The notes below the pieces were generated by a model. It saw nothing but the letters and a program-made list of their open reading frames with translations. It did no database searches and was not told the DNA's origin. 64,000 nt of DNA from an uncultured Methylomirabilota bacterium. GTDB taxonomy: Bacteria; Methylomirabilota; Methylomirabilia; Methylomirabilales; 2-02-FULL-66-22. Each line of letters opens with the position of its first letter. Position 1 is the first letter of the stretch. The DNA lies in the NCBI GenBank assembly GCA_963705305.1, contig OY970067.1, positions 4,512,001-4,576,000 on the forward strand, in the 5' to 3' direction. The position numbers and the translations under genes were made by a program. Below, piece after piece: positions 7,511 to 34,012 of the stretch.

Positions 7511-7512
7511 GC

Positions 7513-11913: not shown

Positions 11914-11914
11914 G

Positions 11915-13597: not shown

Positions 13598-13607
13598 GGA
13601 AGGAGCC

Positions 13608-14534
13608 ATGAACGCTGGCCTGGGCCTCATGCTGCTCTTCGCGGCGCTGAACGCGGCGCTGGTGCTCGCCGTGGCCCCCCTGTGCGAGGGGATCCTGCGC
13701 AAGGTCACTGCCAAGATCCAGTCCCGGCAGGGGCCGCCGCTCTGGCAGCCCTACTACGACTTGCTGAAGCTGCTGGGCAAGGAGGACCTCGAATCGGGGG
13801 AAAGTCCCCGGATGCAGCGGTTCGCGGCCGTCCTCGCCCTCTCCGCCATCCTGATGGTGGCCATGCTGATCCCCATGGGGCGCCCGGCCCCGCTGGGCGG
13901 GTACGGCGATGTCGTGCTCCTCATCTACCTGCTGACCCTCTGCGGGATCTCCACCATGCTGGCCGGTCTGGCCGCGGGCTCCACCTATTCCCTGGTGGGC
14001 ATGAGCCGGGAGATGATGTCTCTCATGACCCTGGAGCCGCTGCTGGCCGTGGCGATCATCATCGGGACCGTCCATGCCGGCTCGCTGCGCTTGGGGACGG
14101 TGCTGAACGGATCCCTGTACGCCTCGGGTGCGCTTCCCCTGGCCGGCCTCCTCATGCTGGTGGTGGTGCTCCTCTCCCTGCAGGGATTCGTGGGGCGGCT
14201 CCCCTTCGACATCGCCGAGGCCGAGACGGAGCTGATGGAGGGGCCGCTGGCGGAGTACTCGGGGGCCAAGCTGGCGCTCTTCAAGTTCGCCCAGATGGTC
14301 AAGCTGGTGGTGTACAGCGCGCTCCTGGTGGCCCTGTTCGCCCCCTGGGGGAGCGCCTGGCCATACCCCCTGAGCGCGCTCGTGCTGCTGGCCAAGATCT
14401 TGGTCCTGGTCCTGCTTGTGACGCTGGTGGCGGCGACCCACGCCCGCTACCGCATCGATCAGGCCATCCGCTACTACGCCGGCCTGTTCGGCGCCGCCTT
14501 TGTGGCCCTGCTTTTGGCCCTGTGGGGCTTTTGA
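13608..14534 (+). CDS. HycD/NuoH-like membrane subunit
   Basis: RKVTAKIQSRQGPPLWQPYYDLLKLLGKE and RLPFDIAEAETELMEGPLAEYSG motifs; SD AGGAG. Confidence 0.92.
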   Translation: MNAGLGLMLLFAALNAALVLAVAPLCEGILRKVTAKIQSRQGPPLWQPYYDLLKLLGKEDLESGESPRMQRFAAVLALSAILMVAMLIPMGRPAPLGGYGDVVLLIYLLTLCGISTMLAGLAAGSTYSLVGMSREMMSLMTLEPLLAVAIIIGTVHAGSLRLGTVLNGSLYASGALPLAGLLMLVVVLLSLQGFVGRLPFDIAEAETELMEGPLAEYSGAKLALFKFAQMVKLVVYSALLVALFAPWGSAWPYPLSALVLLAKILVLVLLVTLVAATHARYRIDQAIRYYAGLFGAAFVALLLALWGF

Positions 14535-14548
14535 GGAACGGGGGAGCC

Positions 14549-15073
14549 ATGTCGCTGCTGAGCAAGCTGAAGGAAACCGCGATCTGCCTGCGGGCTGGAA
14601 GGGTGACCCGGCCCTACCCGGCCCAGCCGGCCCCCACCCCTCCCGGCTTCCGGGGACGGCCGATCTTCGATGCGAGCAAGTGCATCGGCTGCGCCGGCTG
14701 CGCCAACAACTGCCCCGCCCGCGAGATCCTGGTCCACGACATCTGCCAGGAGATCCGCATCATCAAGTACATCGGGCGCCGCTGCACCTATTGCGGCCGC
14801 TGCGCCGACGTCTGTCCCGAAAAGGCCATCACGATGAGCACGGACTTCGAGACCGCCACCAACGACATCCACGACCTCCAGCAGGAGCTCGAGCTGTTCA
14901 TGGGGACCTGCCAGCGCTGCGGCCGCTGCTTCAAGGAGCCGGGGCCCCTCGAGCAGCTCATGATGAAGGGGTACCGGTTCGACGAGCTCAAGGACGATCG
15001 GTGGATCCACCGCTCGACGGCCTACCTTGAGGGCCAGCCGGTGGTCCGAGATATTGAGATCGAGCTGGATTGA
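14549..15073 (+). CDS. HycF/NuoI-like 2x[4Fe-4S] subunit
   Basis: TRPYP..FRGRP; CIGCAGCANNCP and CTYCGRCADVCP; additional CQRCGRC. Confidence 0.9.
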   Translation: MSLLSKLKETAICLRAGRVTRPYPAQPAPTPPGFRGRPIFDASKCIGCAGCANNCPAREILVHDICQEIRIIKYIGRRCTYCGRCADVCPEKAITMSTDFETATNDIHDLQQELELFMGTCQRCGRCFKEPGPLEQLMMKGYRFDELKDDRWIHRSTAYLEGQPVVRDIEIELD

Positions 15074-15081
15074 CGCCATAA

Positions 15082-15233
15082 CAGGCCGCTGAAAAAGGCC
15101 CATCTGCGGCGTTGGTCCGCTCGGGCACTCGCTGCGGCGTACTGAAAGTACGCCTCACTCAGCCCTTTGCGGACCGCCTTGCATCTGGACCTTTTTGAGC
15201 AGCCTGGGGGAAGGCGGGTTTTTCATCACACTG
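15082..15233. mobile_element. MITE-like structured repeat, copy 1
   Basis: CAGGCCGCTGAAAAAGGCCCATCTGCGG ... GCCTTGCATCTGGACCTTTTTGAGCAGCCTG, central GGCGTACTGAAAGTACGCC hairpin; related copies at 17280 and 40923. Confidence 0.7.
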
Positions 15234-15249
15234 ATAGGGGGGAACGGAC

Positions 15250-15785
15250 GTGTTAAAGGGACTCTGCCGGAAGGTCTTCCCGCGGTCGCTCTGGGTCTAC
15301 CACGCCAACAGCGGGGGCTGCAACGGATGCGACATCGAGGTCCTGAACGTCCTGACCCCGTATTATGATGTGGAGCGCTTCGGCATCCGGCTGGTGGGCT
15401 CCCCCCGCCACGCCGATGTGATGCTGTGCCAGGGACCCGCCATGCGGTCCACCGCCCGGGCGCTGCGGCGCGCCTACGAGGCCATGCCCGCCCCCAAACT
15501 GGTCTTCGCGATCGGCTCTTGCGCATGTGGGGGGGACTCTGGTATGATACATACAGCGTCCTGGGGCCGGTGGAGAAGGTGCTTCCCGTGGATTTCTACA
15601 TCCCGGGCTGCCCGCCCCGCCCCGAGGCGATCCTCTACGGGGTGGCGGTGGCGGTAGGGCTGGTGGACAAGAAGGTGGCGCCGGTCCAGCTCAAGCAGCT
15701 GGAGTTCCCGATCCCGAAATACCATCCGGAAGACCTCCAGCAGGACGACGGCATGGTCGTCTATCAGAAGCTCAACCGGGTGTAA
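15250..15785 (+). CDS. Group 4 [NiFe]-hydrogenase small subunit (HycG/NuoB-like), split by a 1-nt frameshift in a G7 run at 15529-15535
   Basis: First frame: [33 protein letters not shown]. Second frame: [24 protein letters not shown]. One extra G joins the two. Confidence 0.88.
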
Positions 15786-15844
15786 GCTGCCTCCGCGTCC
15801 CGCCGCCTGCCGTTCCCCCCGCGAGGGCCCTGTGAAGGAGTATC

Positions 15845-16186
15845 ATGCACGAAGTGGGCCTGATGCAGGACACGCTCATCATCGCGCTCCGGCACGCCAC
15901 GCAGGAGGGCGCCCGGCGGGTTCACCGCCTGACCATGCGGGTGGGTCCCCTGTCGGGTGCCGTCCCCGAGGCCCTGGAGTTCGCCTTTGACGTGCTGGCC
16001 CGCGGCACCATGGCCGAGGGCGCCCGTCTGGAGATCGAGCGCGTCCCCATCGTGTGCTACTGTCCGAGCTGTGCCCAGGAATTCACGGCCGACGATTTCC
16101 TCTGCGAATGTCCCCACTGCCATGCGCCCAGCGTGGAGGTTCGGCACGGCCGGGAGCTGGAGCTCGCCAGTCTGGAGGTATCCTGA
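15845..16186 (+). CDS. hypA: Hydrogenase maturation nickel metallochaperone HypA
   Basis: MHEVGL start, two CxxC motifs, GRELEL end. Confidence 0.95.
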
Positions 16187-16187
16187 C

Positions 16188-17084
16188 GTGTGCAAGGAAT
16201 GCGGCTGCGGCATCGTGGAAGGCTTTCGAGTCGACGGAGAGCCGGTCGTTGCGGACCCGGGGCCGGGTACCCCCGGGGTGGCCCCCGGGGCGGCGCATAC
16301 CCATTCGCACGAGGCCGGGGAGGACCACGGCCATTCCCATCCGCACCCGCACGGGCCGCATGTCCACGGCGCCGACCATGCGCACGACCACCGGACGGTC
16401 CCGGTGCACGAGGCGATCCTCGATAAGAACGACCGGCTGGCCGAGCGGAACCGCGGCTACTTCGCCGGCAAGGGCCTGCTCGTGCTCAACCTGCTCTCCT
16501 CCCCGGGCGCCGGCAAGACCGCTTTCATCGAGCGGACGGTGGCGGACCTGGGGGCGCGCCTCCGGGTCGGCGTGATCGTGGGCGACCTCGAAACGGACAA
16601 CGACGCGCGGCGGCTGCGCGGCCGCGGGGTACCGGCGGTCCAGATCACCACCGGCAACGTGTGCCACCTGGATGCGGAGATGGTCGCCCACGCCCTGGAG
16701 CGGCTGGAGCTGGACGCCCTGCAGGTCCTCATCATCGAAAACGTGGGGAACCTGGTCTGCCCGGCCTCCTACGATCTTGGCGAGGACTTCCGCGTGGTGA
16801 TCATGTCGGTCACCGAGGGCGAGGACAAGCCGCTCAAGTACCCGGTCATGTTTCGCACCGCGCAGGTGGTCGTGGTCAACAAGACCGACATCCTCGAAGC
16901 CGTCGGATTCGACCGCGAGACCGCCCTGCAAAACATCCGCCGCGTGGCCCCCCAGGCCACCATCTTCGAGCTTTCGGCGCGCACGGGAGAAGGCATGGCG
17001 CAGTGGTACCAATACCTCGAGGAGCGGCTGCGCCGGCCCCGCCACGGCGTGATCCGAAACCCGGCGGGAACGGCAGCCTCCTAA
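16188..17084 (+). CDS. hypB: Hydrogenase nickel incorporation GTPase HypB with His-rich segment
   Basis: GTG start MCKECGC; His-rich linker; [36 protein letters not shown]. Confidence 0.95.
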
Positions 17085-17653: not shown

Positions 17654-17682
17654 TTGACGCAATTCCATGCAGGTGCCATTCT
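17654..17682 (+). promoter_or_regulatory. Putative sigma70 promoter of the first hdrA-mvh operon
   Basis: TTGACG-17 nt-CATTCT with extended -10 TG; AT-rich UP-like tract immediately upstream; dyad TTATC-N10-GATAA at 17592-17611. Confidence 0.55.
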
Positions 17683-17936
17683 ATTTTCAAAGTGAGATTG
17701 GTCAGGCCAGCGGACCATCTGGCCTCAGGTGATAAGGGGAAGCTACGAAAGGAACCCAAACCAGGAAATAAGCCGCATTACCGGATTGAGCTCGTCGTCT
17801 CGACCCGTCAAACAACCATCGAAAGACGCCATGATTACACGCGATCAGCGCACCGACACCTCATAATTCTCGCGCGACCGACCCGTCACGACACCGGCCG
17901 CGCTGCGCCAAACCCCGCGACCTCCCGGAGGGGGCA

Positions 17937-19997
17937 ATGAGTCATCAGGTACGTTCGGAGGGTTTCCCGGGCAACGGCAACGGAGATACACCGCGCACGG
18001 GCGTATTCATATGCCACTGTGGCGGGAACATTTCCGACGTGGTAAACGTCCAACGCGTCGCGCAGGAGATCGGCGCCCTCCCGGGTGTGGCCTGCTCCAT
18101 GACCCACACCTTCATGTGCTCCGACCCCGGCCAAGCCCTCATCCAGGAGAAGATCAAGGAGTGCAATCTCAACCGGGTCGTCGTCGCCGCCTGCTCTCCC
18201 AGCCTGCATGAACTGACGTTTCGCCGCACCCTCACCCGCAGCGGCCTGAACCCCTACCTGTACGAACATTGCAACATCCGCGAGCAGTGCTCCTGGGTGG
18301 TCCGCAATAAGGAGCTGGCCACCCAGAAGGCCACGCGGCTGATCCGCGCGGCGGCAGCGCGCGCCGGCCATCTGACTCCCCTGCAGAAGCGCCGCATCCC
18401 CATCCACCCCGAGGCGCTCGTCATCGGCGGAGGCATCGCGGGCCTGGTGGCAGCCCGGGACCTGGCGCAGCGCGGCATCCGCGTCACGCTGGTCGAACAG
18501 TCGCCGTTCCTGGGAGGCCGGGTCGCCCAGATGGGGAAGGTCTTCCCCACCGAAGAGCGCGCCCGCGATCTTTTGAATCCCATCATCGCCGAGGTCGTCA
18601 AGCATCCCCGGGTGACCGTCCTCACCAATGCCCGGGTGACCCACGCCGAGGGGATTGTCGGCAATTTCAAGGCGCACATCCAGATCATTCCTCGCGGCGT
18701 GAACTCCAGGCTGGCCGCTCCCGGCCACGTCATGGCCGCCTGCCCCGTGGAGACCGAGAACGAGTTCGACTTCGGATTGACCAAGCGGAAGGCGATCTAC
18801 CAGCCCTACTACGGCTGCTATCCGCAGCTGCCCGCCATCGATTGGACCGCCTGCACCAAGTGCGGGAAGTGTATCGAGGCATCGGGGGGGAAAGGCATCG
18901 AGCTGGATGCACAGCCGCGCGAAACCGAAGTGCATGCCGGCGTGATCGTCCTGGCCACGGGCCACGACCCGTACGAGCCGCTGCCAGGCGAGTACGGGTA
19001 CGGGAAGTTCCCGGAGGTGGTGACCCTCCAGCAGATGTACCGGATGCTGGACACCGACGGGCCCACGGGCGGCGAGGTGAAAGCCAACGGCGCTCCCGTC
19101 CGCACGGTCGTCTTCATCTACTGCGTCGGCGCACGGCAGCGCGAGGGCATCAGCGTGCCCATGCCCGACGGGCGGGTGCGCGAGTACTGCGGCAGGACCT
19201 GCTGCACCGCCTCGCTGAAGATCGCCACCGAGCTGCAGGAGCGCTACCCCCGCATGAACATCTACAGCTTCTACCAGGATGTTCGCGCCTACGGCCGCGG
19301 GCACGAGGAATACTACACCCGGGCATCCGAGGGCGGCGCCATCTTCCTCCGCTACGACCCCAACCATCCCCCGCGGGTGGAGAAAGATTTTCGCGGGACG
19401 TCCGCGCTGATCGTGCGCGGCCGCGACCTCCTGACGGGGGATGTCGAGCTGGAGGTTCCGGCCGACCTGGTGGTCCTGTCCACCGGCGTCGTGCCCCACG
19501 ACATCAGCGACCTGGTCGAGATCTTCAAGTGCTCCATCGGTCCGGACACCTTCTTGCTGGAGGTCCATCCGAAGCTGCGGCCGGTCGAGCTGGCGGTGAG
19601 CGGGGTCTTCCTGGCGGGGACCTGCCAGAGTCCCATGGACATCACCGAGGCCTCGGCCGGCGGCGCGGCTGCCGCGTCCAAAGCCGCCGCCATGGTGGTG
19701 CAGGCCGAGGTCGAGATGGATCCCTTCATCGCCACCGTGGATGAGCAGCTCTGCACCGGATGCCAGACCTGCCTCACAGTGTGTCCCTACGACGCCCTCA
19801 GCCGGGACGAGGCCAAGCACATCGCCGTGGTCAACGAGGCCCTGTGCACCGGCTGCGGCAGCTGCGCCGCCACCTGCCCGAGCGATGCGATCCAGCAGCG
19901 GGGGTTCACAGACCGCCAGGTGCTTTCCGAGCTGCTGGCGCTCCTGGCGCGCCAGGCGCCGGCGGGAGCAGGCGATCTATTGACCGTCGGCCGATAA
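17937..19997 (+). CDS. hdrA: Heterodisulfide reductase subunit A-like flavoprotein (divergent, HdrA-1)
   Basis: GVFICHCGGNI, FMCS, AACSP, NIREQCSW, GGGIAG, CGRTCC, EVHPKLRPVE and a C-terminal 2x[4Fe-4S] domain. Confidence 0.9.
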   Translation: MSHQVRSEGFPGNGNGDTPRTGVFICHCGGNISDVVNVQRVAQEIGALPGVACSMTHTFMCSDPGQALIQEKIKECNLNRVVVAACSPSLHELTFRRTLTRSGLNPYLYEHCNIREQCSWVVRNKELATQKATRLIRAAAARAGHLTPLQKRRIPIHPEALVIGGGIAGLVAARDLAQRGIRVTLVEQSPFLGGRVAQMGKVFPTEERARDLLNPIIAEVVKHPRVTVLTNARVTHAEGIVGNFKAHIQIIPRGVNSRLAAPGHVMAACPVETENEFDFGLTKRKAIYQPYYGCYPQLPAIDWTACTKCGKCIEASGGKGIELDAQPRETEVHAGVIVLATGHDPYEPLPGEYGYGKFPEVVTLQQMYRMLDTDGPTGGEVKANGAPVRTVVFIYCVGARQREGISVPMPDGRVREYCGRTCCTASLKIATELQERYPRMNIYSFYQDVRAYGRGHEEYYTRASEGGAIFLRYDPNHPPRVEKDFRGTSALIVRGRDLLTGDVELEVPADLVVLSTGVVPHDISDLVEIFKCSIGPDTFLLEVHPKLRPVELAVSGVFLAGTCQSPMDITEASAGGAAAASKAAAMVVQAEVEMDPFIATVDEQLCTGCQTCLTVCPYDALSRDEAKHIAVVNEALCTGCGSCAATCPSDAIQQRGFTDRQVLSELLALLARQAPAGAGDLLTVGR

Positions 19998-20009
19998 GGG
20001 GGATTGGGC

Positions 20010-20525
20010 ATGACTGATCGCGCCATGCACGAGATGCAGGAGGCTCCATCGGCCCCGGGAAGCTGGGAGCCCCGGATCGTCGGATTCCTCTGCTACTGGT
20101 GCTCGTACACCGGGGCGGACGGGGCCGGGACAGCGCGCATGTCCTACCCCCCCAACGTGGACATCGTGCGCCTGATGTGCTCGGGACGCTGCGACCCCCA
20201 GCTGATTACCGCCGCGTATGCCAACGGCGCCGATGGGGTCCTCGTCCTGGGCTGCCACGTCGGCGATTGCCACTACATCAGCGGGAACCACAAGACCATG
20301 GCGCGCATGCCGCTGCTGCGCCGCGTCCTGGACGAGCTGGGCATCGAGCCGGAGCGGTTTCGCCACGACTGGGTGAGCGCCGCCGAGGGGGAGAAATTCA
20401 CCCGGGTGGTGACCGAGATGACCGAGCAGGTGCGCCGGCTGGGTCCCCTGAACTGGCCCGGGCTCCTGCATGCGCGAGGGGTCGGACACGGCATGGATCT
20501 CCATCCCTGGGGGGAGCGCCCATGA
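20010..20525 (+). CDS. mvhD: MvhD [2Fe-2S] subunit
   Basis: FLCYWCSYTGAD, MCSGR, GCHVGDCHY and WVSAAEG motifs. Confidence 0.93.
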   Translation: MTDRAMHEMQEAPSAPGSWEPRIVGFLCYWCSYTGADGAGTARMSYPPNVDIVRLMCSGRCDPQLITAAYANGADGVLVLGCHVGDCHYISGNHKTMARMPLLRRVLDELGIEPERFRHDWVSAAEGEKFTRVVTEMTEQVRRLGPLNWPGLLHARGVGHGMDLHPWGERP

Positions 20526-21523
20526 GCGCGGAACAGACCAAGAGCAAGCTGAAGGTGGCCAAGTACTGGGCGTCCAGCTGCGGCGGGTGCGACATCTCGC
20601 TCCTGGAGATCGGTCCCCGCCTGCTGGATCTGATCGCCATCGCCGATGTCGTCTTCTGGCCCTGCGCGGCGGACTTCAAGTATCGGGACGTCGCCAACTA
20701 TCCGGACGGCTACATCGATATCTGCTTCTACAACGGAGGGGTGCGGAACTCGGAGCAGGAAGAGGTTGCGCGCCTGCTGCGCCAGAAGAGCAAGACCCTG
20801 ATCGCCTACGGCGAGTGCGCCGTTGGCGGCGGCATTCCCGCCCTCGCCAACCTGAAGTCGCGCGCCGGGATCTTCGAGGCGGCCTATCACCAGAACCCCT
20901 CCATCGACAATCCGGACGGTGTGGAGCCCCGGCCGGTGGTCCAGTCCCCCGTCGGGGAGCTCGAGATCCCCGTCTTCTACCCCGGCGTCCTGCGCCTGAA
21001 GGATGTGATCGAGGTGGACTACGAGATCCCCGGCTGTCCGCCGCAGGCCGACCGGGTGTGGGAGGCCATCCAGGCCGTGGCAGGCGGGGCGGTGCCCGCG
21101 CGCAATACCGCCGTTCCGGTCGGCTGCGGGAACAAAAGCGTCTGCGACGAGTGCAGCCGGGAGAAGCGCCTGGTGAAAATCGGCCGGTTCACCCGCCATC
21201 ACCTGGTGCGCCCGGAGCCCGGCTGGTGCCTGCTGGAACAAGGGATCCTGTGCATGGGGCCGGCCACCCGCAGCGGCTGCGGGGCCCTCTGCCTCAAGGC
21301 CGATATGCCGTGCGAGGGCTGCTACGGCCCGTCGGGAGAGACGCTGGACCAGGGGACCGCCATGGTGGGCGCCGTGGGGGCCATCCTCGACGCCACGACC
21401 GAAGAGCGCGCCCACGAGCTCATCCAGCAGATCGTGGATCCCGCCGGCAGCTTCTACCGCTTCACGCTGGCCGGCGGCTACATGAAGGGCAGGAACGAGG
21501 CGCGGGGGGAGGACAGGGCATGA
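20522..21523 (+). CDS. mvhG: Group 3c [NiFe]-hydrogenase small subunit MvhG
   Basis: [43 protein letters not shown]. Confidence 0.92.
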
Positions 21524-23034
21524 CCAGTCCACAGGTGAAGACCGCCGAAGGGTTGCGCCGGATCAGCATCGATCCCGTGACCCGCCTGGAGGGCCACGGC
21601 AAGATCGATATCTTCCTGGATGCCGAGGGGAATGTGGCGGATTGCTTCTTCCAGGTGCCGGAGCTGCGCGGGTTCGAGAAGTTCTGCGAGGGGCGCCCGG
21701 TCGAGGAGATGCCGCGCATCACTCCCCGGATCTGCGGGGTCTGCCCGGAGGCGCACCTGATGGCCTCGGCGAAGGCGTGCGACGCGGTCTACGGGGCCGA
21801 GCTGCCGCTCACGGCCAAGCTCCTGCGCGAGCTGCAGTACAACATCTTCTTCGTCACGGACCACACCACCCACTTCTACGCCCTGGGGGCGCCGGACTTC
21901 GTCATGGGCCCGCAAAGCGACCCCGCACTGCGCAACCTGATCGGGGTCATCGGCAAGGTCGGCGTACAGATCGGCGGCGAGGTCATCAAGTGCCGTGCCT
22001 GGGGACACGAGGCCGCCGCCATCTTCGGCGGCAAGCCGGTGAATCCCGCCAACGCCATCCCGGGGGGGATGAGCAAGCCCCTCAAGCCCGAAGAGCGCGA
22101 CCGGGTGGAGGAGATCTGCCGCTTCATGGTGGAGTTCGGGAAGTTCACCCTGAAGCTGCTGCACGACGTCGTGCTTGCCAACAAGGAGTATGTGGACCTG
22201 ATCCTCACTGGCCCCTACTACCAGGAGACCTACTCCATGGGGCTGGTGGACGAGAAGAACCGGGTGAACTACTACGACGGGAAGGTGCGGGTCGTGGACC
22301 CCGAGGGGAACGAGCTCTGCAAGTACGCCCCGCCCGAGTACGCGCGGCACATCGCCGAGCGTGTGGAGCCCTGGAGCTACCTGAAGTTCCCGTACCTGAA
22401 GGCGGTGGGCTGGAAGGGGCTCGTCAGCGGCAAGGAGTCGGGGGTCTACCGGGCCACCCCGCAGTCCCGGTTGAACGCCGGGGACAGCATGAACAGCCCC
22501 TTGGCCCAGGAGGCCTACGAGGAGTATTTCGAGACGCTGACGGGAGACAAGAGCGGCAGGAAGCCCGTCCACCACACCCTGGCCATCCACTGGGCCCGGG
22601 TCATCGAGCTTCTGAACGCGGCCGAGCGGGCGCTGGAGTTGGTGCGACACCCGGAGATCACCCATCCCGAGCACTACCGGGTGGTGTGCGACAAGACCCC
22701 CAGGGAGGGGGTGGGCATCGTCGAGGCGCCGCGCGGAACCCTGACCCACCACTACGTCACGGACGAGACCGGTCGCGTGAAGAAGGCCAATCTGATCGTC
22801 GGGACGACGAACAATCATGCCGCCATCTGCATCTCCATCAAGCAGGCGGCTCAGGGGTTGATCAAGAAAGGCGTGGAGGTCACCGAGGGCGTCCTGAACA
22901 TGATCGAGATGGCCTTCCGCGCCTATGATCCATGTTTCGGCTGTGCCACCCACAGCCTGCCGGGTCAGATGCCGTTGATCGTGCGGGTGCGGGACGTGGA
23001 CGGCAGCGTGCTGAGCGAAAGGCGGCGAGGGTAA
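21520..23034 (+). CDS. mvhA: Group 3c [NiFe]-hydrogenase large subunit MvhA
   Basis: [11 protein letters not shown]1 [11 protein letters not shown]2 [12 protein letters not shown] plus C-terminal extension. Confidence 0.93.
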
Positions 23035-23071
23035 ACCGGCGGGACGGAGCCCCCCAGGGAAAGGGCGCACC

Positions 23072-24400
23072 ATGGCAGAGATCAAGGAACGCTACGACGG
23101 GTTGGTCATCGGGGCGGGGATCGCCGGTATGCAGGCGGCGCTGGATCTGGCCGGCCAGGGGTACCAGGTCCTCCTGGTGGAGAGTCAGCCCTCCATCGGC
23201 GGGGTCATGGTCTCCCTGAACAAGGTCTTCCCCACCCTGGACTGCTCCAGCTGCATCTGCACCCCCCGCATGGCCGAGGTTGCCCACGACGAGAACGTCA
23301 CCATCCTGACCTACACCGAGGTCGAGAAGGTCGAGCCCCAGGGATCCGGGTTCCGGGTCCGCCTGCGGCAGAAGCCCCGCTACGTCGTGGCGGAGGACTG
23401 CATCGGGTGCAGCCTGTGCGAGCTGGCGTGCGACGTCTACGTCCGCCACGAGTTCGACTACGGACTGGGGGCGCGGCGCGCCATCTACATCCCCCACGCC
23501 AACGCCATTCCCCAGGTGGCGGTCCTGGATGCGGAGCACTGCGTGTTCGACGGCAACTGCGCCAAGGTGTGTCCCACCGACTGCATCGACTTCACGCAGC
23601 AGCCGGTCGAGCGCACCATCCAGGTGGGGGCCGTCATCATCACCACCGGGCTCACCATCACCCCCATGGACGCCAAGAAGGAGTACGGGGGGGGCACGCA
23701 CCTCAACGTCATGAGCCCCCTGGCGATGGAGCGGGTCCAGTCCTCCAACGGACCCTACGGGCGGGTCCTTCGCCCGTCGGACGGGAAGATTCCTCAATCG
23801 GTCGCTTACGTCCAATGCGCCGGGAGCCGGGACGCCTCCATCGGCGTGTCGTATTGCTCCCGAGTGTGCTGCATGTACGCCATCAAGCAGGCGATCATGC
23901 TGAAGCATGAGCGGCACGACGTGAACGTCACGATCTACTACATGGACATCCGGGCCTTCGGCAAGAACTACGAGCAGTTCTACCGGCGCGCCGTCGCCGA
24001 CGGGATCCATTTCGTCAAGGCCAAGGTGGCAAAGATCGCGGAGGTGGACAACCACGACCTGGTCCTGCGCGTGGAGCTGATCGAGGAAGGGGGGCGCATC
24101 GGAGAGATCCGGCACGATCTGGTGGTGCTCAGCCAGGGGCTGAGGCCCGCCTGGCACGCGGACGGGGTGATCCCGGTGGAGGAGAGCCCGGACGGGTTCT
24201 TCACAACCCCCCAGGCGAAGGTTCGCCCGGTGAAGACCACCGTCGAGGGGATCTTCGTAGCGGGTGTGGCCGCCGGTCCGAAGGACATTCCCGATGCCAT
24301 CGTGGAGGCCGGCGCGGCTGCCATGGAGGCAGCCATCCATCTCGAGCGCACCGGCGCAGGCCGGCCGGCGCGGGCGGCGGTCGGCGTCAGCCACGATTGA
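23072..24400 (+). CDS. Short HdrA/QmoA-like flavoprotein (HdrA-2) lacking the N-terminal and C-terminal Fe-S domains
   Basis: Starts at GAGIAG; KVFPTLDCSSC; inserted 2x[4Fe-4S] domain; QCAGSR; CSRVCCMYAIK; ends shortly after GPKDIP. Confidence 0.88.
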   Translation: MAEIKERYDGLVIGAGIAGMQAALDLAGQGYQVLLVESQPSIGGVMVSLNKVFPTLDCSSCICTPRMAEVAHDENVTILTYTEVEKVEPQGSGFRVRLRQKPRYVVAEDCIGCSLCELACDVYVRHEFDYGLGARRAIYIPHANAIPQVAVLDAEHCVFDGNCAKVCPTDCIDFTQQPVERTIQVGAVIITTGLTITPMDAKKEYGGGTHLNVMSPLAMERVQSSNGPYGRVLRPSDGKIPQSVAYVQCAGSRDASIGVSYCSRVCCMYAIKQAIMLKHERHDVNVTIYYMDIRAFGKNYEQFYRRAVADGIHFVKAKVAKIAEVDNHDLVLRVELIEEGGRIGEIRHDLVVLSQGLRPAWHADGVIPVEESPDGFFTTPQAKVRPVKTTVEGIFVAGVAAGPKDIPDAIVEAGAAAMEAAIHLERTGAGRPARAAVGVSHD

Positions 24401-24430
24401 GCGACAGCGGAGGGATGACGGGGGGCAACC

Positions 24431-24724
24431 ATGAGTGAGTCGAAACGCGACTGGAGAGCAGACCTGAAGACCTTCCGCGAGCGAATGGGGGGGCTCACCG
24501 AGGCGAAGAAGGCCTACTTCAAGGCCGACCGCGACACGCGCAAGGCCCTGACAGAGGCGCTGAAGTCCGGTCCCAAAACGATCCCGGAGCTGACACGACA
24601 CTTGAAGCTCCCCGGTCCCGAGGTGGTGTGGTACGTCATGGCCCTGAAGCGGTACGGGGACGTGGTGGAGGCCGGCCAGGCCGGCGACTACCTCACATAC
24701 GCCCTGAAGGAGTCGGCGTCATGA
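24431..24724 (+). CDS. Small hypothetical protein, winged helix-turn-helix-like
   Basis: 97 aa; ALKSGPKTIPELTRHL...VVWYVMALKRYGDV pattern; ATGA-coupled to the next gene. Confidence 0.7.
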   Translation: MSESKRDWRADLKTFRERMGGLTEAKKAYFKADRDTRKALTEALKSGPKTIPELTRHLKLPGPEVVWYVMALKRYGDVVEAGQAGDYLTYALKESAS

Positions 24725-25884
24725 GCGTTCGTGTGGATCCGGATGTGGTCAGGGAGCTGGCAGAGTACGGAGCCGACACAGCCGTCAAGTGCTTCAATTG
24801 CGGCAACTGCACCGCCGTCTGCGCGCTGTCCAAGGAGGACACCACCTTCCCACGGCGGTACATCCGCAACATGCAGCTGGGACTCAAAGACAAGCTGCTG
24901 GAATCCATCGATCCCTGGCTGTGCTACTATTGCGGCAACTGCTCGGACACCTGTCCGCGCGAGGCCCAACCCGGCAAGCTCATGATGGCCAGCCGGCGCT
25001 GGCTCACCAGCATGTACGATTGGACCGGACTGAGCCGCCGGATGTACCAGCGGGCGCGGTGGGAGCTGGGACTGCTGGCGGCCGTGGCCGTGGCGGTCCT
25101 GCTGCTGTTCAGCCTGCCGTCCGATTTCGGGTTGCGCCTGCTTCTCCGGCACCCCGAGGCTCTCCGGACCGTCAATCTGGAATTCTTCGCCCCGATGGTG
25201 TACGTCCATTACGCGGACATCTTCCTGGCCGTCCTGCTGGGTCTTATGCTGGCCGTCAACGCCGGGCGCATGGTGGGCTTCGCCACGCGCAGCGGCCCCC
25301 GTGTCCCCCTGGGCATCTACCTGTCGCACGCGGCGGACCTGGTGGCCCACGGCCTGACCCAGAAGCGCTGGCAGCAGTGCGACACCAACACGATCAAGCA
25401 CTGGGTCCGACACATGACCCTCGTCACCGCGTACGGGACCATGTTTATTCTGGTGGTCGTCTTCCTGCCGTGGTTCCAGGTGCCGAACACCTCCTTTCAC
25501 TGGACCAGTTTCCTCGGGTACTACGCAACCCTCATCCTGCTCGGCGCCACCACCTGGATCATCCTGGACCGCCTGAAGAGGCGGGATCAGATGCACAAGC
25601 ATCCGGATCTCTCCGACTGGCTGTTCGTGATCCTGCTGTTCCTGACCGCCCTGACGGGAATTGTCCTCAACGTGTTCCGTTTGTTGGATCTGCCCGTCCC
25701 GACGTACGTCACCTACACCATCCACCTGATGATCGCCGTGCCCATGCTGGTGGTGGAGGTGCCCTTCAGCAAGTGGCCGCACCTCGTCTACCGGCCGCTG
25801 GCGGCGTTTCTCGCCGCAGCCCGCGCCAAGGCCGCCGAGCGGCAGCCGGCCGCCGTCCGCACGGCCCCTGCGCTCCCTTCCTGA
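24721..25884 (+). CDS. QmoC-like protein: HdrC-type 2x[4Fe-4S] domain fused to a NarI/cytochrome b-like membrane domain
   Basis: CFNCGNCTAVC and WLCYYCGNCSDTCP, then about 6 hydrophobic segments with His residues and a terminal PFSKWPHLVYRP. Confidence 0.85.
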   Translation: MSVRVDPDVVRELAEYGADTAVKCFNCGNCTAVCALSKEDTTFPRRYIRNMQLGLKDKLLESIDPWLCYYCGNCSDTCPREAQPGKLMMASRRWLTSMYDWTGLSRRMYQRARWELGLLAAVAVAVLLLFSLPSDFGLRLLLRHPEALRTVNLEFFAPMVYVHYADIFLAVLLGLMLAVNAGRMVGFATRSGPRVPLGIYLSHAADLVAHGLTQKRWQQCDTNTIKHWVRHMTLVTAYGTMFILVVVFLPWFQVPNTSFHWTSFLGYYATLILLGATTWIILDRLKRRDQMHKHPDLSDWLFVILLFLTALTGIVLNVFRLLDLPVPTYVTYTIHLMIAVPMLVVEVPFSKWPHLVYRPLAAFLAAARAKAAERQPAAVRTAPALPS

Positions 25885-25918: not shown

Positions 25919-25949
25919 GAAGAGGGCCTTCGGGCCCTCTTCGTGTTTC
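25919..25949 (+). terminator. Probable intrinsic terminator after the qmoC-like gene
   Basis: Perfect GAAGAGGGCC-TTCG-GGCCCTCTTC hairpin followed by GTGTTTC (weak U tract). Confidence 0.6.
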
Positions 25950-26333
25950 GGGCGCTCCGCGCCGACACGATCCATCCTGCCGTCTCTCCCACGCGTTCCG
26001 GCCGTACCCCACCCACTTGTTGCGCCCCGCTATCACGCGCCTCGCAGACCTCGGTCGGCTCAATCTCCGTCGCTGAAGCCGCCGTGCTGAATTTCTCAAC
26101 AGATGAATGCGACGACAGACATTCGCCCTAATGCGCTTGAATTTGCCGATCGCGAGAGTATCGTCATCGCAGATGCGGGGCGCGCCCGTATGCCCCCGCC
26201 CAGACAGGATGCCGGCCGATCCTGCGCCGGATTTCCGGAGCAGGGAGACCGGAAGACGACAGTCGGCGCCGAGAACCGGCGGTCTACACGCTCCGCCCCT
26301 CGGCCGAATCGTGGAGCCAGGAGGAATCAGGCC

Positions 26334-26984
26334 ATGCCCCATCTAGCCACGGGAGGGGAGGCGCCGCGTGCGGCGCGACCCATCCAGGAGCGGAAGGACG
26401 TCCGCCGACACATCACGTACGAATCCGAGCTGGACCCGGGGTTCGCCGAAAAAATCGCCCGGCTGGCCTACGGGGAAAAACTCTTCAGCTGCATCCAGTG
26501 CGGGACGTGCAGCGGCACCTGTCCGGTGAGCCACTACATGGACTACACGCCCCGCAAGATCATCGCCATGGTCCGAGAGGGCTTCCGGGACGAGGTCCTG
26601 AACAGTCTCACCATCTGGCTGTGCGCCTCGTGCTACTCCTGCACGGTGGACTGCCCCCGGGAGATCAAGATCACCGACGTGATGTACGCCCTCAAGCAGG
26701 AGGCCATGACCCAAGGGCTTTACCCGAAGCGGTTTCCCATCCCCGTCCTGGCGCGCGAGTTCTTCCGCGGCGTGGCCAGTCACGGCCGGAACAGTGAAGG
26801 CCCCCTGATGGTCAGGTTCTTCCTGAAGACGAACCCCCTTCGAATGCTCAGGAACGCGCCCGTCGCCTGGCGCCTCTGGCGGACGGGCCGACTCTCGCTG
26901 CTGGCGGAGAAGACGCAAAGCAAGGGCGTCGTCGGGAGGCTTTTACGCGCCGCCAAACAGGTCGAAGAAGGGAGTGCGCAATGA
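26334..26984 (+). CDS. hdrC: Heterodisulfide reductase subunit C
   Basis: SD AGGAGG before ATG 26334; CIQCGTCSGTCP, TPRKII and IWLCASCYSCTVDCP. Confidence 0.92.
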   Translation: MPHLATGGEAPRAARPIQERKDVRRHITYESELDPGFAEKIARLAYGEKLFSCIQCGTCSGTCPVSHYMDYTPRKIIAMVREGFRDEVLNSLTIWLCASCYSCTVDCPREIKITDVMYALKQEAMTQGLYPKRFPIPVLAREFFRGVASHGRNSEGPLMVRFFLKTNPLRMLRNAPVAWRLWRTGRLSLLAEKTQSKGVVGRLLRAAKQVEEGSAQ

Positions 26985-27889
26985 CCTACCTGTATTACCC
27001 GGGGTGCTCGCTCAAGAGCACCGGGAGGGCATATGAGGAGTCGGCACTGAAGGTGTTTCAGGCGCTGGAGGCCCCCCTTCAGGAGCTCGAGGATTGGAAC
27101 TGCTGCGGGGCGACCGCCTATATGTCGGTGGACGAGGTGCAGGCCTTCTCCCTGGCCGCCCGCAACCTCTGCCTGGCGGAGCAGCACGCGTCAGCGCAGA
27201 CGAAGGAGCCCGTACAGCTCGTCGCCCCCTGCGCCGCATGCTTCCTGGTCCTCACCAAGACGCAGCGCTACCTGGAGATGCATCCGGACCTGGACCGCCA
27301 GGTGAAGGCGGCCCTCCAGGCCGTGGGACTCACCTTTACGGGCCAGGTCCGTGTCCGCCACCCGCTGGACGTGTTCGTCAATGACATCGGCATCCCGCGG
27401 ATTACCAAGAGGGTCAAGCGCAGTCTGAGCGGCCTGAAGGTCGCCTGCTATTACGGGTGCCAGATCGTCCGCCCCTTCGCCACGTTCGACGACGCCCACA
27501 ATCCCACCACCATGGATCGCGTGGTCGCCGCCCTGGGGGCCAGCTCGGTCAAGTGGCCGCTCAAGACCCGCTGCTGCGGAGGCTCCCTCAGCGGCACCAT
27601 CCCCGATGCGGGTCTCCGGCTGAGCCAGATTCTGCTGCAGGAGGCCAAGCGCCGCGGGGCCGACATCGTGGTCACCGCGTGCCCGCTCTGCCAGTTCAAC
27701 CTCGAGTGCTACCAGAAGGAAATGGGCCGGGCGTTCGGCCAGCCGGTGGACATCCCGGTGCTCTACCTCACCCAGCTCATGGGCAGAGCCTTCGGGATCT
27801 CCGACCGGGAGCTGGGCATGCAGCGCCTGTTCGTGTCCCCCGCGGACGTATTTGCCCGGCAGGAAGGAGGTCAGGCCGTCCATGCGTGA
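26981..27889 (+). CDS. hdrB: Heterodisulfide reductase subunit B (two CCG domains)
   Basis: YYPGCS, WNCCGA, CAAC, YYGCQ, CCGG and CPLCQFNL motifs. Confidence 0.93.
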   Translation: MTYLYYPGCSLKSTGRAYEESALKVFQALEAPLQELEDWNCCGATAYMSVDEVQAFSLAARNLCLAEQHASAQTKEPVQLVAPCAACFLVLTKTQRYLEMHPDLDRQVKAALQAVGLTFTGQVRVRHPLDVFVNDIGIPRITKRVKRSLSGLKVACYYGCQIVRPFATFDDAHNPTTMDRVVAALGASSVKWPLKTRCCGGSLSGTIPDAGLRLSQILLQEAKRRGADIVVTACPLCQFNLECYQKEMGRAFGQPVDIPVLYLTQLMGRAFGISDRELGMQRLFVSPADVFARQEGGQAVHA

Positions 27890-29891
27890 GTCCACATCCA
27901 ACGGCACCCCACGGATCGGCGTGTATATCTGCCACTGTGGAACGAATATCGCGGGCACGGTGGACGTCAAGGCCGTGACCGAGTACTGCGCCACCCTGCC
28001 GGGAGTGGCGGTGTCCAGAGACTACAAGTACATGTGCTCCGACCCCGGCCAGGAGCTGATCCAGCAGGACATCCGCGACCACCAGCTCACCCGGATCGTG
28101 GTGGCCTCCTGCTCTCCCCTGCTGCACGAACATACCTTCCGCCACGCCGTCGCACAGGGCGGGTTGAATCCCTATTACTTTCAGATGGTCAACATCCGGG
28201 AGAACGTGTCCTGGGTGAACCCGGATCCGCCGGCGGCCACCGCGAAGGCCAAGGATCTGCTGCGGGCCGCCATCTACCGGGTGGCCCTGCACAAGGCCCT
28301 GGAGCCCAAGCAGGTGCCCATCAACCCCAACGTCCTGGTGGTGGGAGGCGGCATTGCGGGCATCCATGCCGCCCTGACCCTGGCCAATGCCGGCAAGCAC
28401 GTCATCCTGGTGGAGCGCGAGCCGACCATCGGCGGGCACATGGCCATGTTCGACAAGACCTTCCCGACCCTCGACTGCGCCGCCTGCATCCTGACCCCCA
28501 AGATGTCCGCGGTGAAGTGCCACCCGAACATCACCCTCTGGACCTACTCCGAGGTCACCCAGGTGGACGGATTCGTGGGGAGCTACAAGGTGCGGGTCCG
28601 GCGCAAGCCCCGCTACGTCAAGGAGGATCTCTGCATCGGCTGCCTGGAGTGCATCACCGCCTGCATCTACAAGGACGCCAGGTTCCCCGACGATTTCAAC
28701 CAGGGGCTGAGCAAGCGCAAGCCCGTCTACATCCCGTTCCCGCAGGCGACCCCCCAGGTCGTGCTGTTCGATCCGGAATCCTGCATCCAGCTCAAGTCCG
28801 GCAAGTGCAAGCAGGCCTGCGTGGACAGTTGCGATCGGGATGCCATCGATTTCGGACAGACGGAGGAGATCAAGGAGATCGAGGTCGGCACCATCATCCT
28901 GGCCACCGGCTTCCAGGCCTTCGATGCCAGCCGCCTCCCCTACTACGGCTACGGCGTCTACCCCAACGTCTACACCGCCCTGGAGGTCGAGCGGCTCATC
29001 AACGCCTCCGGCCCGACCGGGGGTGAGGTCGTGCTGCGCGACGGGCGGAAGCCCCAGACGGTGGGAATCATCCACTGCGTCGGCTCCCGCGATGAGAAGA
29101 CCAACCGCTGGTGCTCCCGGGTCTGCTGCATGTACTCGCTGAAGCTGGCCCACCTCGTGAAGGAGCACACCGGCGCCGAGGTGTACAACTTCTACATCGA
29201 CATGCGCACTCCCGGAAAGAGCTACGAGGAGTTCTACGACAAGCTGCTGAAAGAGGGAACGCACTTCATCCGGGGCCGTGTGGCGGAGGTCACCGACTGG
29301 GCCCGGTCGCCCGAGGAGGAGGGCAAGCTGGTGGTGCGCGTGGAGGACACGCTCGTCGGCACCGTCCGCCGCATCCCCCTCGACATGGTCATCCTGTCCG
29401 TGGGGCTGGAGCCGCGAGCCGACTCGCAGGAGATCCGGCGAATGTTCAACATCTCCTGCTCGACGGAGGGGTTCTTCCTGGAGCGCCATCCGAAGCTGGC
29501 CCCGGTGAACACCTTCACCGACGGGATCTTCATCGCGGGGGCCTGCCAGGGTCCCCGGGACATCCCGGATACGGTGGCCCAGGCGGGGGCCGCGGCCGCC
29601 GAGGCCCTGGTGCTCATCGACACGGGCCACGTGGAGCTGGAGCCCAATACCGCCTTCATCGTCGAGGAGGAATGCTCCGGGTGCAAGTCCTGCATCTCCC
29701 TGTGCCCCTACACGGCCATCAGCTTCCTGGACGACAAGAAGAAGGCAACCATCAACGAGGCCCTCTGCAAGGGCTGCGGGACGTGCGTGGCGGCGTGCCC
29801 GTCGGGCTCGATCAAGCAGAACCTCTTCGAGGACGAAGAGATCTTCAGCGAGCTCGAGGGCCTGTTCGCACGCGATGCGGCCGCCGTCTAG
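27882..29891 (+). CDS. hdrA: Heterodisulfide reductase subunit A (canonical, HdrA-3)
   Basis: GVYICHCGTNI, KTFPTLDCAAC, inserted ferredoxin, TALEVERL, CSRVCCMYSLK, ERHPKLAPV and a C-terminal 2x[4Fe-4S] domain. Confidence 0.95.
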   Translation: MRESTSNGTPRIGVYICHCGTNIAGTVDVKAVTEYCATLPGVAVSRDYKYMCSDPGQELIQQDIRDHQLTRIVVASCSPLLHEHTFRHAVAQGGLNPYYFQMVNIRENVSWVNPDPPAATAKAKDLLRAAIYRVALHKALEPKQVPINPNVLVVGGGIAGIHAALTLANAGKHVILVEREPTIGGHMAMFDKTFPTLDCAACILTPKMSAVKCHPNITLWTYSEVTQVDGFVGSYKVRVRRKPRYVKEDLCIGCLECITACIYKDARFPDDFNQGLSKRKPVYIPFPQATPQVVLFDPESCIQLKSGKCKQACVDSCDRDAIDFGQTEEIKEIEVGTIILATGFQAFDASRLPYYGYGVYPNVYTALEVERLINASGPTGGEVVLRDGRKPQTVGIIHCVGSRDEKTNRWCSRVCCMYSLKLAHLVKEHTGAEVYNFYIDMRTPGKSYEEFYDKLLKEGTHFIRGRVAEVTDWARSPEEEGKLVVRVEDTLVGTVRRIPLDMVILSVGLEPRADSQEIRRMFNISCSTEGFFLERHPKLAPVNTFTDGIFIAGACQGPRDIPDTVAQAGAAAAEALVLIDTGHVELEPNTAFIVEEECSGCKSCISLCPYTAISFLDDKKKATINEALCKGCGTCVAACPSGSIKQNLFEDEEIFSELEGLFARDAAAV

Positions 29892-29912
29892 CCGCAGACG
29901 GGAGGTGAAATT

Positions 29913-30443
29913 TTGACTGGCCACACGAACGCAAGCAGCGCTCCGGCGCCGGTCCAGGGGTGGGAGCCCCGCATCGTCGCCTTCTTCTGCAACTGGTGCA
30001 CCTACACCGCGGCGGACCTGGCAGGGGTCTCCCGCATGAAGCACGCGCCCAACATCCGGATCATCCGGCTGATGTGCTCCGGCCGCGTGGATCCGCAGTT
30101 CATTCTGGACGCCTTTGCCAAGGGGGCCGACGGCGTGCTCATCGGCGGCTGCCACATCGGCGATTGCCATTATGCCGAGGGGAACTACAAGACCGTCCGC
30201 CGGATGCACATGCTGAAGCGGGTCCTGGAGGAGATGGGGATCGAGGAGGAGCGCTTCCGGCTCGAGTGGATCTCCGCGTCGGAAGGCGAGAAGGTCAAGC
30301 TGGTCGTCAACGACATGGTGGAGAAAGTGCGGGCCCTCGGCCCGCTGGGCCTGCCCCGGCGCTTCCTGGAATGGGATGCCGAGATGGACTCGCTGGAGCA
30401 CGCCATCGAAGGAGCCAAGGAGGTCGAGGTCCATGCCAGATAA
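29913..30443 (+). CDS. mvhD: MvhD [2Fe-2S] subunit (second copy)
   Basis: TTG start after GGAGGTG; FFCNWCTYTAAD, MCSGRVDP, GCHIGDCHY. Confidence 0.93.
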   Translation: MTGHTNASSAPAPVQGWEPRIVAFFCNWCTYTAADLAGVSRMKHAPNIRIIRLMCSGRVDPQFILDAFAKGADGVLIGGCHIGDCHYAEGNYKTVRRMHMLKRVLEEMGIEEERFRLEWISASEGEKVKLVVNDMVEKVRALGPLGLPRRFLEWDAEMDSLEHAIEGAKEVEVHAR

Positions 30444-31407: not shown

Positions 31408-31432
31408 GGGGAGCACAGGAGGCCACGGAGAC

Positions 31433-33519: not shown

Positions 33520-34012
33520 CCGGGTGGGTCTGGCGGTGGTGCGCGAGCTCAGGCGACTCCTGAGCGAAGGCCCCATCCCGGGAGTGGACGTCCTCGCCAG
33601 CACGCGGGCGGGCTTCGAGCTGATCGATCTGCTGCGCGGGTACGGGCGCGCCATCATCGTCGACTGCCTGGAAGTCCCGGACCCTTCGCCCGGATGCGTC
33701 CGTCACCTGACATTGGACCAGGTCTCCGGCAGCGCCCGGCTGATCAGCGCCCACGAAGTCAGCGTCGGTACGGCCTTTCAGCTGGCGGAGCGGATGGGGA
33801 TCCCCATGCCCGGCGAGGTGGAGATTATCGCCGTGGAAGCCGGGGACACCACCAGCATCGCCGAGGACCTCAGCCCCGCCGTCCAGGCAGCCGTGATGCC
33901 TCTGGCGCGGGAAATTTACGAAGACCTCCGCCGTTGCGCACCCGCCGACGACCCTCCCGACGACGAGGATTTCCGAAGCCGACGGGCTTTCTACTCCCCC
34001 GATCCCGAATGA
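33461..34012 (+). CDS. Hydrogenase maturation protease
   Basis: GLGNPVLRDDRVG, IVDC, SAH; SD CAGGTG. Confidence 0.88.
   Translation: MPTGQRTVVLGLGNPVLRDDRVGLAVVRELRRLLSEGPIPGVDVLASTRAGFELIDLLRGYGRAIIVDCLEVPDPSPGCVRHLTLDQVSGSARLISAHEVSVGTAFQLAERMGIPMPGEVEIIAVEAGDTTSIAEDLSPAVQAAVMPLAREIYEDLRRCAPADDPPDDEDFRSRRAFYSPDPE

Follow-up and report, generated by a model that had tools for sequence, protein, structure and literature searches.

Can a cytoplasmic [NiFe] hydrogenase be coupled to the quinone pool through HdrA-type flavoproteins, with a membrane cytochrome standing where one would look for HdrB and HdrC? This question is raised by a locus on contig OY970067.1 (assembly GCA_963705305.1) of an uncultured Methylomirabilota bacterium, in a stretch of 64,000 nucleotides that we refer to as the window. 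Positions 17937-25884 of its forward strand carry seven tightly packed genes, delimited by third-position G+C and family scans: hdrA-1, mvhD, mvhG, mvhA, a short hdrA, a small winged-helix gene, and qmoC. The original prediction, made from the letters alone, read them as a hybrid Mvh-Qmo complex linking cytoplasmic H2 to quinone. The Mvh/HdrA/QmoC feature is real, and the proposed function is supported at the genomic level by the family membership of QmoC, the dsr and menaquinone context, synteny, and independence from HdrB. We put at about 0.55 the probability that the operon encodes one membrane-anchored Mvh-HdrA(long/short)-QmoC complex, which would pass electrons from H2 to menaquinone, probably bifurcating to ferredoxin, without HdrBC.

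The QmoC-type membrane subunit

The last gene, qmoC (24721..25884), encodes a protein in which sequence and an AlphaFold2 model both point to an HdrC-like 2x[4Fe-4S] domain followed by a six-helix cytochrome-b-like membrane domain. The NF038018 (qmoC) model aligned across positions 4-357 of its 360 with 203.7 bits, which is under the 300-bit cut-off, and a genome-wide profile search found no protein of this genome above that cut-off. Identity to the QmoC proteins of verified aprBA-qmoABC loci is 52-55%. Membership of the QmoC family is thus supported, and haem binding is predicted.

The original prediction had noted two [4Fe-4S] motifs and possible haem-ligating histidines in VRHM, FHW, TIHL, and WPHL, and both features are conserved among relatives. 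In 85 family representatives, the eight Fe-S cysteines show no or almost no variation. The histidines correspond to H232, H261, H336, and H355, numbered on a translation from 24718, so that one should be subtracted for the true protein. Among the representatives, H232 is kept in 85/85, H336 in 83/85, and H355 in 84/85; the figures for 81 close relatives are 81, 80, and 80, with H261 kept in 70/81 and a further histidine, H164, in 45/81. All four named histidines are present in each of the 14 QmoC proteins of this operon type.

The AlphaFold2 model, built with the 85 family representatives, has a mean predicted local distance difference test (pLDDT) score of 92.8 and shows the Fe-S head followed by six long helices. 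VIA-align matched the head to HdrC (Z 13.4 and 12.9) and the helical part to haem-b proteins, namely EtfD (Z 10.4, 227 residues aligned), CybB (9.6), NarI (8.8, 149 aligned), and FdnI (6.7), though values of 8.8-10.4 are middling and within the chance range for helical bundles. These membrane-domain matches surfaced only with VIA-align; in a Foldseek search of the PDB, the HdrC-like head gave the sole match, with none at E <= 0.001. A sequence search of the PDB returned no solved Qmo subunit, HdrC alone matching the first ~95 residues. The helix order would place H232 and H355 near the cytoplasmic face and H336 and H261 towards the outer face, an arrangement that fits two stacked candidate haems.

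A complementary pair of HdrA flavoproteins

The first gene, hdrA-1 (17937..19997, 686 aa), encodes a full-length HdrA flavoprotein in a QmoB-like "long" role, as judged from Pfam and NCBIfam matches and an end-to-end alignment to residues 3-646 of 5odc_A (E 3e-163). It has the flavin adenine dinucleotide (FAD) motif GGGIAG and two C-terminal CxxCxxCxxxC motifs, and it terminates after the C-terminal ferredoxin domain, without a fused MvhD domain. Its inserted ferredoxin domain has decayed, the first Cys motif and part of the second being lost in a five-way alignment. The short hdrA (23072..24400, 442 aa), to which a QmoA-like role is assigned, aligns to 5odc_A residues 146-567 (E 1.9e-112); it is devoid of the N- and C-terminal domains and retains the inserted 2x[4Fe-4S] ferredoxin domain with both Cys motifs. 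FAD motifs are retained in both proteins.

The domain losses of the two subunits are therefore complementary, which fits a heterodimer of hdrA-1 and short HdrA replacing the HdrA homodimer. The pattern matches canonical QmoB and QmoA: in the same alignment, QmoB from a verified apr locus is entirely without the inserted domain and QmoA retains it.

Descent tells a different story from architecture. Our HdrA tree has 52 rows and draws on 23 hand-picked loci (7 of type A, 8 of type B, and 8 of type C, as defined below) plus five proteins of the window's own genome; like the QmoC tree below, it was a quick search with Shimodaira-Hasegawa-like approximate likelihood ratio test (SH-aLRT) support only. 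The long subunits of type A cluster together (98), with those of type B as their sister group (100), and type-A short subunits form a clade (100) within a joint A/B short clade (100). Canonical QmoA and QmoB make up a separate clade (99) that excludes both window proteins, although deep nodes are weak (55). The term "hybrid Mvh-Qmo" thus holds for architecture and for QmoC, but not for the descent of the flavoproteins, which are not QmoA/QmoB orthologues in this tree.

Hydrogenase genes, gene starts, and the winged-helix protein

Gene calls in 17937-25884 rested on NCBIfam and Pfam profile scans together with third-position G+C, and every gene that had been named beforehand was found in its place by the family scans. 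The [2Fe-2S] connector mvhD is a gene of its own (20004..20525, with an alternative ATG at 20010; Pfam FlpD 170.8 bits, NCBIfam VhuD 130.8 bits). It is followed by mvhG for the [NiFe]-hydrogenase small subunit (20522..21523; VhuG 202.7 bits) and by mvhA for a Mvh/Vhu-type, group 3c-like large subunit (21520..23034; VhuA 366 bits). All three best NCBIfam models score under their equivalog cut-offs. MvhA carries RICGVC at residue 70 and DPCFGCATH at residue 470, and its chain extends C-terminally beyond the latter. No CCG protein is encoded within 17937-25884; the unit is therefore without hdrB, as originally observed.

Overlaps of 4 nt occur at mvhD/mvhG, mvhG/mvhA, and the small open reading frame (ORF)/qmoC junction, and the other junctions are gaps of 6-37 nt, with mvhD lying 6 nt downstream of hdrA-1. 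The ATG of mvhG overlaps the mvhD stop codon, and at 24721 the letters ATGA combine the qmoC start with the stop codon of the small gene. Since the G+C content of the window is 64-71%, long spurious ORFs are frequent. We rejected two. An 854-aa ORF (20470-23034) is a false protein, made up of mvhA and an upstream frame that stays open for ~350 codons and overlaps mvhG out of frame; a 418-aa qmoC ORF from 24628 is over-long, the correct ATG being 24721.

The small gene (24431..24724) encodes a 97-aa winged-helix protein with weak ArsR/HTH_20-type matches (HTH_5 and HTH_20), one relative reaching 28.4 bits against a 27-bit cut-off. Homologues occur in 37 loci, with W67 and Y90 invariant, and in this lineage the gene is always directly upstream of qmoC. 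Complex prediction for the QmoC-type and 97-aa proteins scored 0.00 in two runs, which is evidence neither for nor against their association. A resemblance to DsrD was considered and dropped, a Pfam scan at E <= 10 having listed no DsrD family.

Conservation and descent of the operon

Among 8,000 candidates scored, 2,868 QmoC relatives were found at E <= 1e-10; those at E <= 1e-30 fall into 185 clusters at 50% identity, and the best named relatives are Methylomirabilota metagenome-assembled genomes (MAGs) at 60-70% identity. For the locus survey, we took one genome per species (594 confirmed QmoC relatives) and compared the best 80 loci by tblastn with the window proteins. The search was seeded with an alignment of close relatives, the 85-representative alignment being too diverse as a seed.

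The original prediction had proposed a survey of synteny, and the seven-gene order proved to be conserved across phyla. Type A, with the identical order of the window, accounts for 13/80 loci; L016, truncated by a contig edge, is compatible with it. The hosts, all uncultured, are MAGs of Acidobacteriota and Methylomirabilales, together with three that bear a Pseudomonadota or Enterobacterales label. Type B (23/80 and one probable) has the order short hdrA-long hdrA-winged-helix gene-qmoC without hydrogenase. Type C (15/80) is qmoA-qmoB-qmoC with MvhD fused into QmoB; both of the two annotated loci carry aprA (889 and 898 bits), and one has dsrAB. The remaining 28 loci are of other types, 12 of them from Desulfobacterales with QmoC fused into a longer protein. 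One of these is L085 10001-20740, from the cultured Desulfospira joergensenii DSM 10085; here, as in 11 similar Desulfobacterales loci, the QmoC-like domain sits inside a protein of 760-850 aa, and giant HdrA fusions (1126 and 1136 aa) come next together with MvhD; one fusion contains a GltD-like NAD(P)-binding module, the other the receiver domain of a response regulator. These loci appear to represent a different relative of the platform.

The QmoC tree comprised all 80 loci and three own-genome proteins, those longer than 500 aa being trimmed to 420 aa; one row (L018) is over-extended and sits on a long branch. Apr-linked QmoC proteins and their Ignavibacteriota/Bacteroidota relatives form one 25-row clade (100). 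The window protein lies outside it and groups with Bryobacteraceae type-A proteins (98), and the type-A rows as a whole are spread over several poorly resolved groups. The simplest reading of both trees is that the operon arose by insertion of mvhDGA into a hydrogenase-free, winged-helix-bearing Qmo-like cluster. Such clusters also occur in archaea: L125-L132, from the same archaeal phylum as L093, have short hdrA-long hdrA-small gene-qmoC without hydrogenase, and their small protein is 35-48% identical to that of the window. The platform would therefore cross domains.

The ValRS encoded in the window shares 73-79% identity with proteins that carry the names Methylomirabilis, NC10, or Methylomirabilales. 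Within its own phylum the operon is patchy. A QmoC match at E <= 1e-60 was found in 8/251 genomes, the window's included, all in one genus-level group; this corresponds to 7 of the 20 other members of the group and 0/230 genomes elsewhere in the phylum. Six of the seven have the type-A order (one, L148, is fragmentary), and the seventh has a type-B-like locus. Such a scattered occurrence, which also involves the Acidobacteriota, suggests that the operon spread laterally.

Does the operon need HdrBC?

A complete second operon, hdrC-hdrB-hdrA-mvhD-mvhG-mvhA (26103-32956, with hdrB at 26981-27889), lies downstream of qmoC, its hdrC starting 220 nt past that gene, and a partnership between the first HdrA pair and this HdrBC would have undermined the proposal of a quinone-linked complex. 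In the genus, hdrC is found 3' of the operon in 3/5 fetched relatives (L145, L146, and L148). No hdrB was found in the 13 type-A loci, where the sequence continues for at least 4 kb downstream in 11 cases, and the sole hdrC matches were to the head of QmoC itself. Whole-genome searches with the window HdrB as query (E <= 1e-10) gave no match in G423, a 98% complete genome of the same genus with a type-A operon at 64-90% identity, nor in G003, which also carries the operon. The same query returned a 69-residue fragment in G004 and, at best, 36%-identical proteins in G413 and G002. Given an operon in G423 without an HdrB match, and no hdrB in any of the 13 loci, dependence of the first unit on the downstream HdrBC seems unlikely.

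Genome context

The original prediction had found no aprAB in the window and called for a genome-wide look at aprAB, dsr, and menaquinone synthesis. The absence of aprA extends to the entire 5.65-Mb genome, where the best match reached 45 bits against a cut-off of 641.75. The genes dsrA (572 bits), dsrB, dsrC, dsrM, dsrK, dsrJ, dsrO, and dsrP all score above their cut-offs, and a DsrL-like gene is present. The locus (G000:C1:2548001-2568000; L014) contains, in addition, a dsrN-like gene, the full set being DsrL-like, dsrA, dsrB, dsrN-like, dsrC, dsrM, dsrK, dsrJ, dsrO, dsrP; another DsrK/HmcE/HmcC-like set is present there as well, along with a split-Soret cytochrome c. Because aprA is missing, the organism does not resemble a sulfate reducer and looks like one of sulfite/thiosulfate type or with a reverse dsr pathway. 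For menaquinone, menA is below its cut-off (35.9 bits), and two genes matching PF02621 (MqnA/MqnD) with 259.7 and 222 bits point to the futalosine route.

A second Qmo-like cluster, on the minus strand at G000:C1:2194000-2202300 (L012 8893-16251), has neither hydrogenase nor apr. It reads ArsR-TusA-short HdrA-long HdrA-QmoC-like (185.9 bits)-DsrE2-like-DsrE-like, and its content marks it as a sulfur-relay-linked relative of the same platform.

Proposed mechanism and alternatives

In the mechanism that we favor, MvhA and MvhG would oxidize H2 in the cytoplasm and MvhD would carry the electrons onward to the heterodimer of hdrA-1 and short HdrA, in which the former would supply the N- and C-terminal domains and the latter the inserted ferredoxin domain. 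The roles of the HdrA domains are those known from 5ODC. At the flavin the paths would part: one electron would cross the QmoC-type subunit, via its two [4Fe-4S] clusters and two predicted haems b, and reach menaquinone, and the other would go to ferredoxin, in a flavin-based bifurcation with menaquinone replacing heterodisulfide. The complex would act independently of HdrBC, and in this bacterium, which has dsr genes but no aprA, its menaquinol would be passed to DsrMKJOP or to other quinol oxidases. The potentials of H2 (~ -414 mV) and menaquinone (~ -75 mV) leave energy to spare, so ferredoxin reduction would be affordable, in parallel with MvhADG-HdrABC. All of the parts needed are encoded: hydrogenase, MvhD, long and short HdrA, the HdrC-like relay, and a predicted haem-b anchor.

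Several considerations weigh against this mechanism. The support is genomic throughout; physical association, the direction of electron flow, and bifurcation are inferred, and bifurcation is not a property that can be read from a sequence. The structural scores of the helical domain, as noted, are no better than middling. Most cysteines of the inserted ferredoxin domain of hdrA-1 are lost, which would leave a single ferredoxin-reducing branch. Electron flow from cytoplasm to quinone would dissipate proton-motive force if menaquinone were reduced at the outer haem, and the quinol-oxidizing direction of canonical Qmo is equally compatible with the sequence. In the window genome, cross-talk is possible because a complete hdrCBA-mvhDGA operon lies so close downstream.

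The Qmo direction leads to an alternative that we consider improbable, a confurcation in which menaquinol (at QmoC) and H2 (at Mvh) are oxidized together to reduce a cytoplasmic acceptor of intermediate potential. The acceptor, which could be a protein of the sulfur cycle, for instance DsrC or a sulfur carrier, would dock on short HdrA as AprAB does on QmoA. The accessible part of Ramos 2012 puts forward the same logic for QmoABC, suggests that a hydrogenase might be the third partner, and reports contact between QmoA and AprAB. Outer-face quinol oxidation would conserve energy, and both the type-B sister clusters and the paralogous cluster of this genome adjoin genes for TusA, DsrE2, DsrE, and ArsR. 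No acceptor gene, however, is conserved in or beside the 13 type-A loci, the neighbors differing in the three annotated flanks (L019, L022, and L094); the operon forms a full set even though it encodes no catalytic reductase subunit, and the partner of canonical Qmo is missing along with aprA.

In a simpler view, the complex would be an H2:menaquinone oxidoreductase without bifurcation, running in this or the opposite direction, and the HdrA pair a mere electron wire. In its favor, electron transfer from H2 to menaquinone is by itself strongly exergonic, and of the two inserted ferredoxin domains one is degenerate. Against it, neither flavoprotein has lost its FAD motif, and ferredoxin domains are kept in both: the C-terminal one, in full, in the long protein and the inserted one (2x[4Fe-4S]) in the short. 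Two conserved flavoproteins would be a costly wire, and with at least seven [NiFe] large-subunit loci the genome has other routes for H2. We give this reading small odds. Smaller still are those of a heterodisulfide or DsrC-type reductase supercomplex built jointly by the two operons, with QmoC as an optional anchor. The short distance to hdrC, and its recurrence in the genus relatives, would suit such an assembly, yet a strong hairpin separates the units, the second operon has its own HdrA, MvhD, MvhG, and MvhA, and the type-A loci without hdrB, together with G423 and G003, speak for independence. We retain the bifurcating Mvh-HdrA-QmoC complex as the preferred reading.

Beyond it lies a broader proposal, which is possible but on which we would not wager: QmoC with a long/short HdrA pair may be a general platform for quinone-coupled bifurcation whose input modules have been swapped repeatedly. 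These would be Mvh (here and, independently, in Archaeoglobi), TusA/DsrE relays (in the hydrogenase-free sisters), and AprAB (in canonical Qmo). The hydrogenase form would then be a missing route by which cytoplasmic H2 reaches menaquinone-dependent sulfite respiration and reduced ferredoxin, and the winged-helix protein might be a seventh subunit or a redox-sensing part.

Operon boundaries and the surrounding hydrogenase island

The original prediction had placed the operon between a sigma70-type promoter at 17654 and a hairpin at 25919. The hairpin (25919..25942, forward strand) is confirmed as terminator-like, GAAGAGGGCC-TTCG-GGCCCTCTTC, with a 10-bp G+C stem, a TTCG loop, and a weak T-tail; the minimum free energy of its 60-nt context is -30.9 kcal/mol. 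The promoter is uncertain. A candidate read from the sequence at 17655..17690, forward strand, has a good -35 hexamer (TTGACG), but its -10 is poor, and a consensus promoter scan made no forward-strand call near 17654 (1 site in the region versus 1.4 expected). Were it used, the leader would be ~250-280 nt. An Rfam scan of the window found no family.

The operon belongs to a hydrogenase island of ~50 kb. Upstream, at 5480-17084, there is a formate-hydrogenlyase-like group-4 [NiFe] hydrogenase, comprising a molybdopterin FdhH-like protein, a NuoL/Mrp-like protein, a fused NuoC/D-like large subunit, and NuoH-like and NuoB-like subunits, and after it hypB. Genes for two more [NiFe] large subunits are found outside the window, 3 and 9 kb ahead of its start, and the whole genome has nine [NiFe] large-subunit family matches at the seven loci mentioned above. 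The HdrC of the downstream operon has 293 aa with an N-terminal extension of ~110 aa. Identities between the first and second Mvh/Hdr sets are 40% (HdrA), 62% (MvhD), 42% (MvhG), and 55% (MvhA), values suggestive of old paralogues. The second operon is followed by an adjacent pair of HycI-type maturation proteases (32857-33519 and 33461-34012), which may serve one MvhA each, and then by hypF, hypD, and hypE. A similar neighborhood is seen in a Thermoanaerobaculaceae MAG (L022 11243-20430), where the operon is directly followed by a hydrogenase maturation protease and then by Fdh-alpha-like, sulfhydrogenase beta/gamma-like, HycI, and Hyf-type membrane subunits, which amount to another hydrogenase island.

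Comparison with known systems

With MvhAGD-HdrABC of hydrogenotrophic methanogens (PDB 5odc and 8rvu), the operon shares Mvh/Vhu-type subunits with MvhD, a full-length HdrA, and an HdrC-like Fe-S domain. It differs in being without HdrB, the protein with two CCG domains and the disulfide-reducing site, in the fusion of its HdrC domain to a membrane cytochrome, and in having an asymmetric HdrA pair instead of a homodimer. The adjoining hdrCBA-mvhDGA operon is a true representative of the methanogen type.

QmoABC, known from sulfate reducers and sulfur oxidizers, likewise has a short flavoprotein, a long flavoprotein with complementary domain loss, an MvhD module, and a QmoC membrane subunit, the last being 52-55% identical to ours. 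Unlike canonical QmoB, which carries a fused C-terminal MvhD-like domain and has no inserted domain, the window long subunit keeps a decayed inserted domain, and its MvhD is a separate gene. The window operon also has hydrogenase and winged-helix genes inside it, its QmoC neither groups with the Apr-linked clade nor reaches the NCBIfam cut-off, and, with aprA missing from the genome, there is no link to AprBA. The partner of the HdrA/MvhD-like module of QmoB has been in question since Ramos 2012, which, in the part of the text available, proposed a hydrogenase as one possibility; the present operon puts hydrogenase genes together with a Qmo-type core. Its enzyme bears on whether HdrA-type flavoproteins bifurcate with quinone as the high-potential acceptor. 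Given how widely uncultured Acidobacteriota and Methylomirabilota of soils and sediments carry the operon, it may be a common route for H2 into anaerobic respiration. Group 3c mvh genes have been listed for peat Acidobacteria, without a Qmo link in the accessible portion of that report (Hausmann et al.), and a full-text literature search of openly readable main texts found no description of a bacterial operon of this kind.

The closest published systems are archaeal. For Ca. Methanoglobus nevadensis, the accessible text describes a cluster of Mvh, two HdrA, and HdrC-QmoC and speculates on electron flow among H2, ferredoxin, and menaquinone (Buessecker et al., bioRxiv 10.1101/2022.12.01.518715). 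For Ca. M. hypatiae, the same cluster is given as highly expressed, with bifurcation from H2 to menaquinone and ferredoxin hypothesized in the text available (Lynes et al., bioRxiv 10.1101/2023.09.08.556235). As far as these portions go, the Archaeoglobi cluster resembles ours in having MvhA, MvhG, MvhD, one long and one short HdrA, and a QmoC-type cytochrome b, with neither HdrB in the cluster nor Apr. The parts list and the idea are hence already in print for Mcr-bearing Archaeoglobi and are not new.

In the sampled archaeal phylum of L093, 50/401 genomes have a QmoC match, and one locus among 20 fetched plus L093, namely L143, has the hydrogenase genes; its genome (G314) also carries mcrA (998 bits). 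In contrast to the window, the order is qmoC-hdrA(short)-hdrA(long)-mvhD-mvhG-mvhA, the winged-helix gene is missing, and QmoC is 29% and the other subunits 41-53% identical to those of the window. On this single archaeal example, the bacterial and archaeal hydrogenase-bearing forms look separately assembled, because the bacterial operon groups with hydrogenase-free, winged-helix-bearing clusters of bacteria and archaea. The advance over the archaeal work is incremental: a distinct bacterial lineage, a likely origin from a hydrogenase-free cluster, and evidence against a need for HdrBC. The window operon, real and conserved, is best regarded as a separately assembled bacterial variant of the published cluster type.

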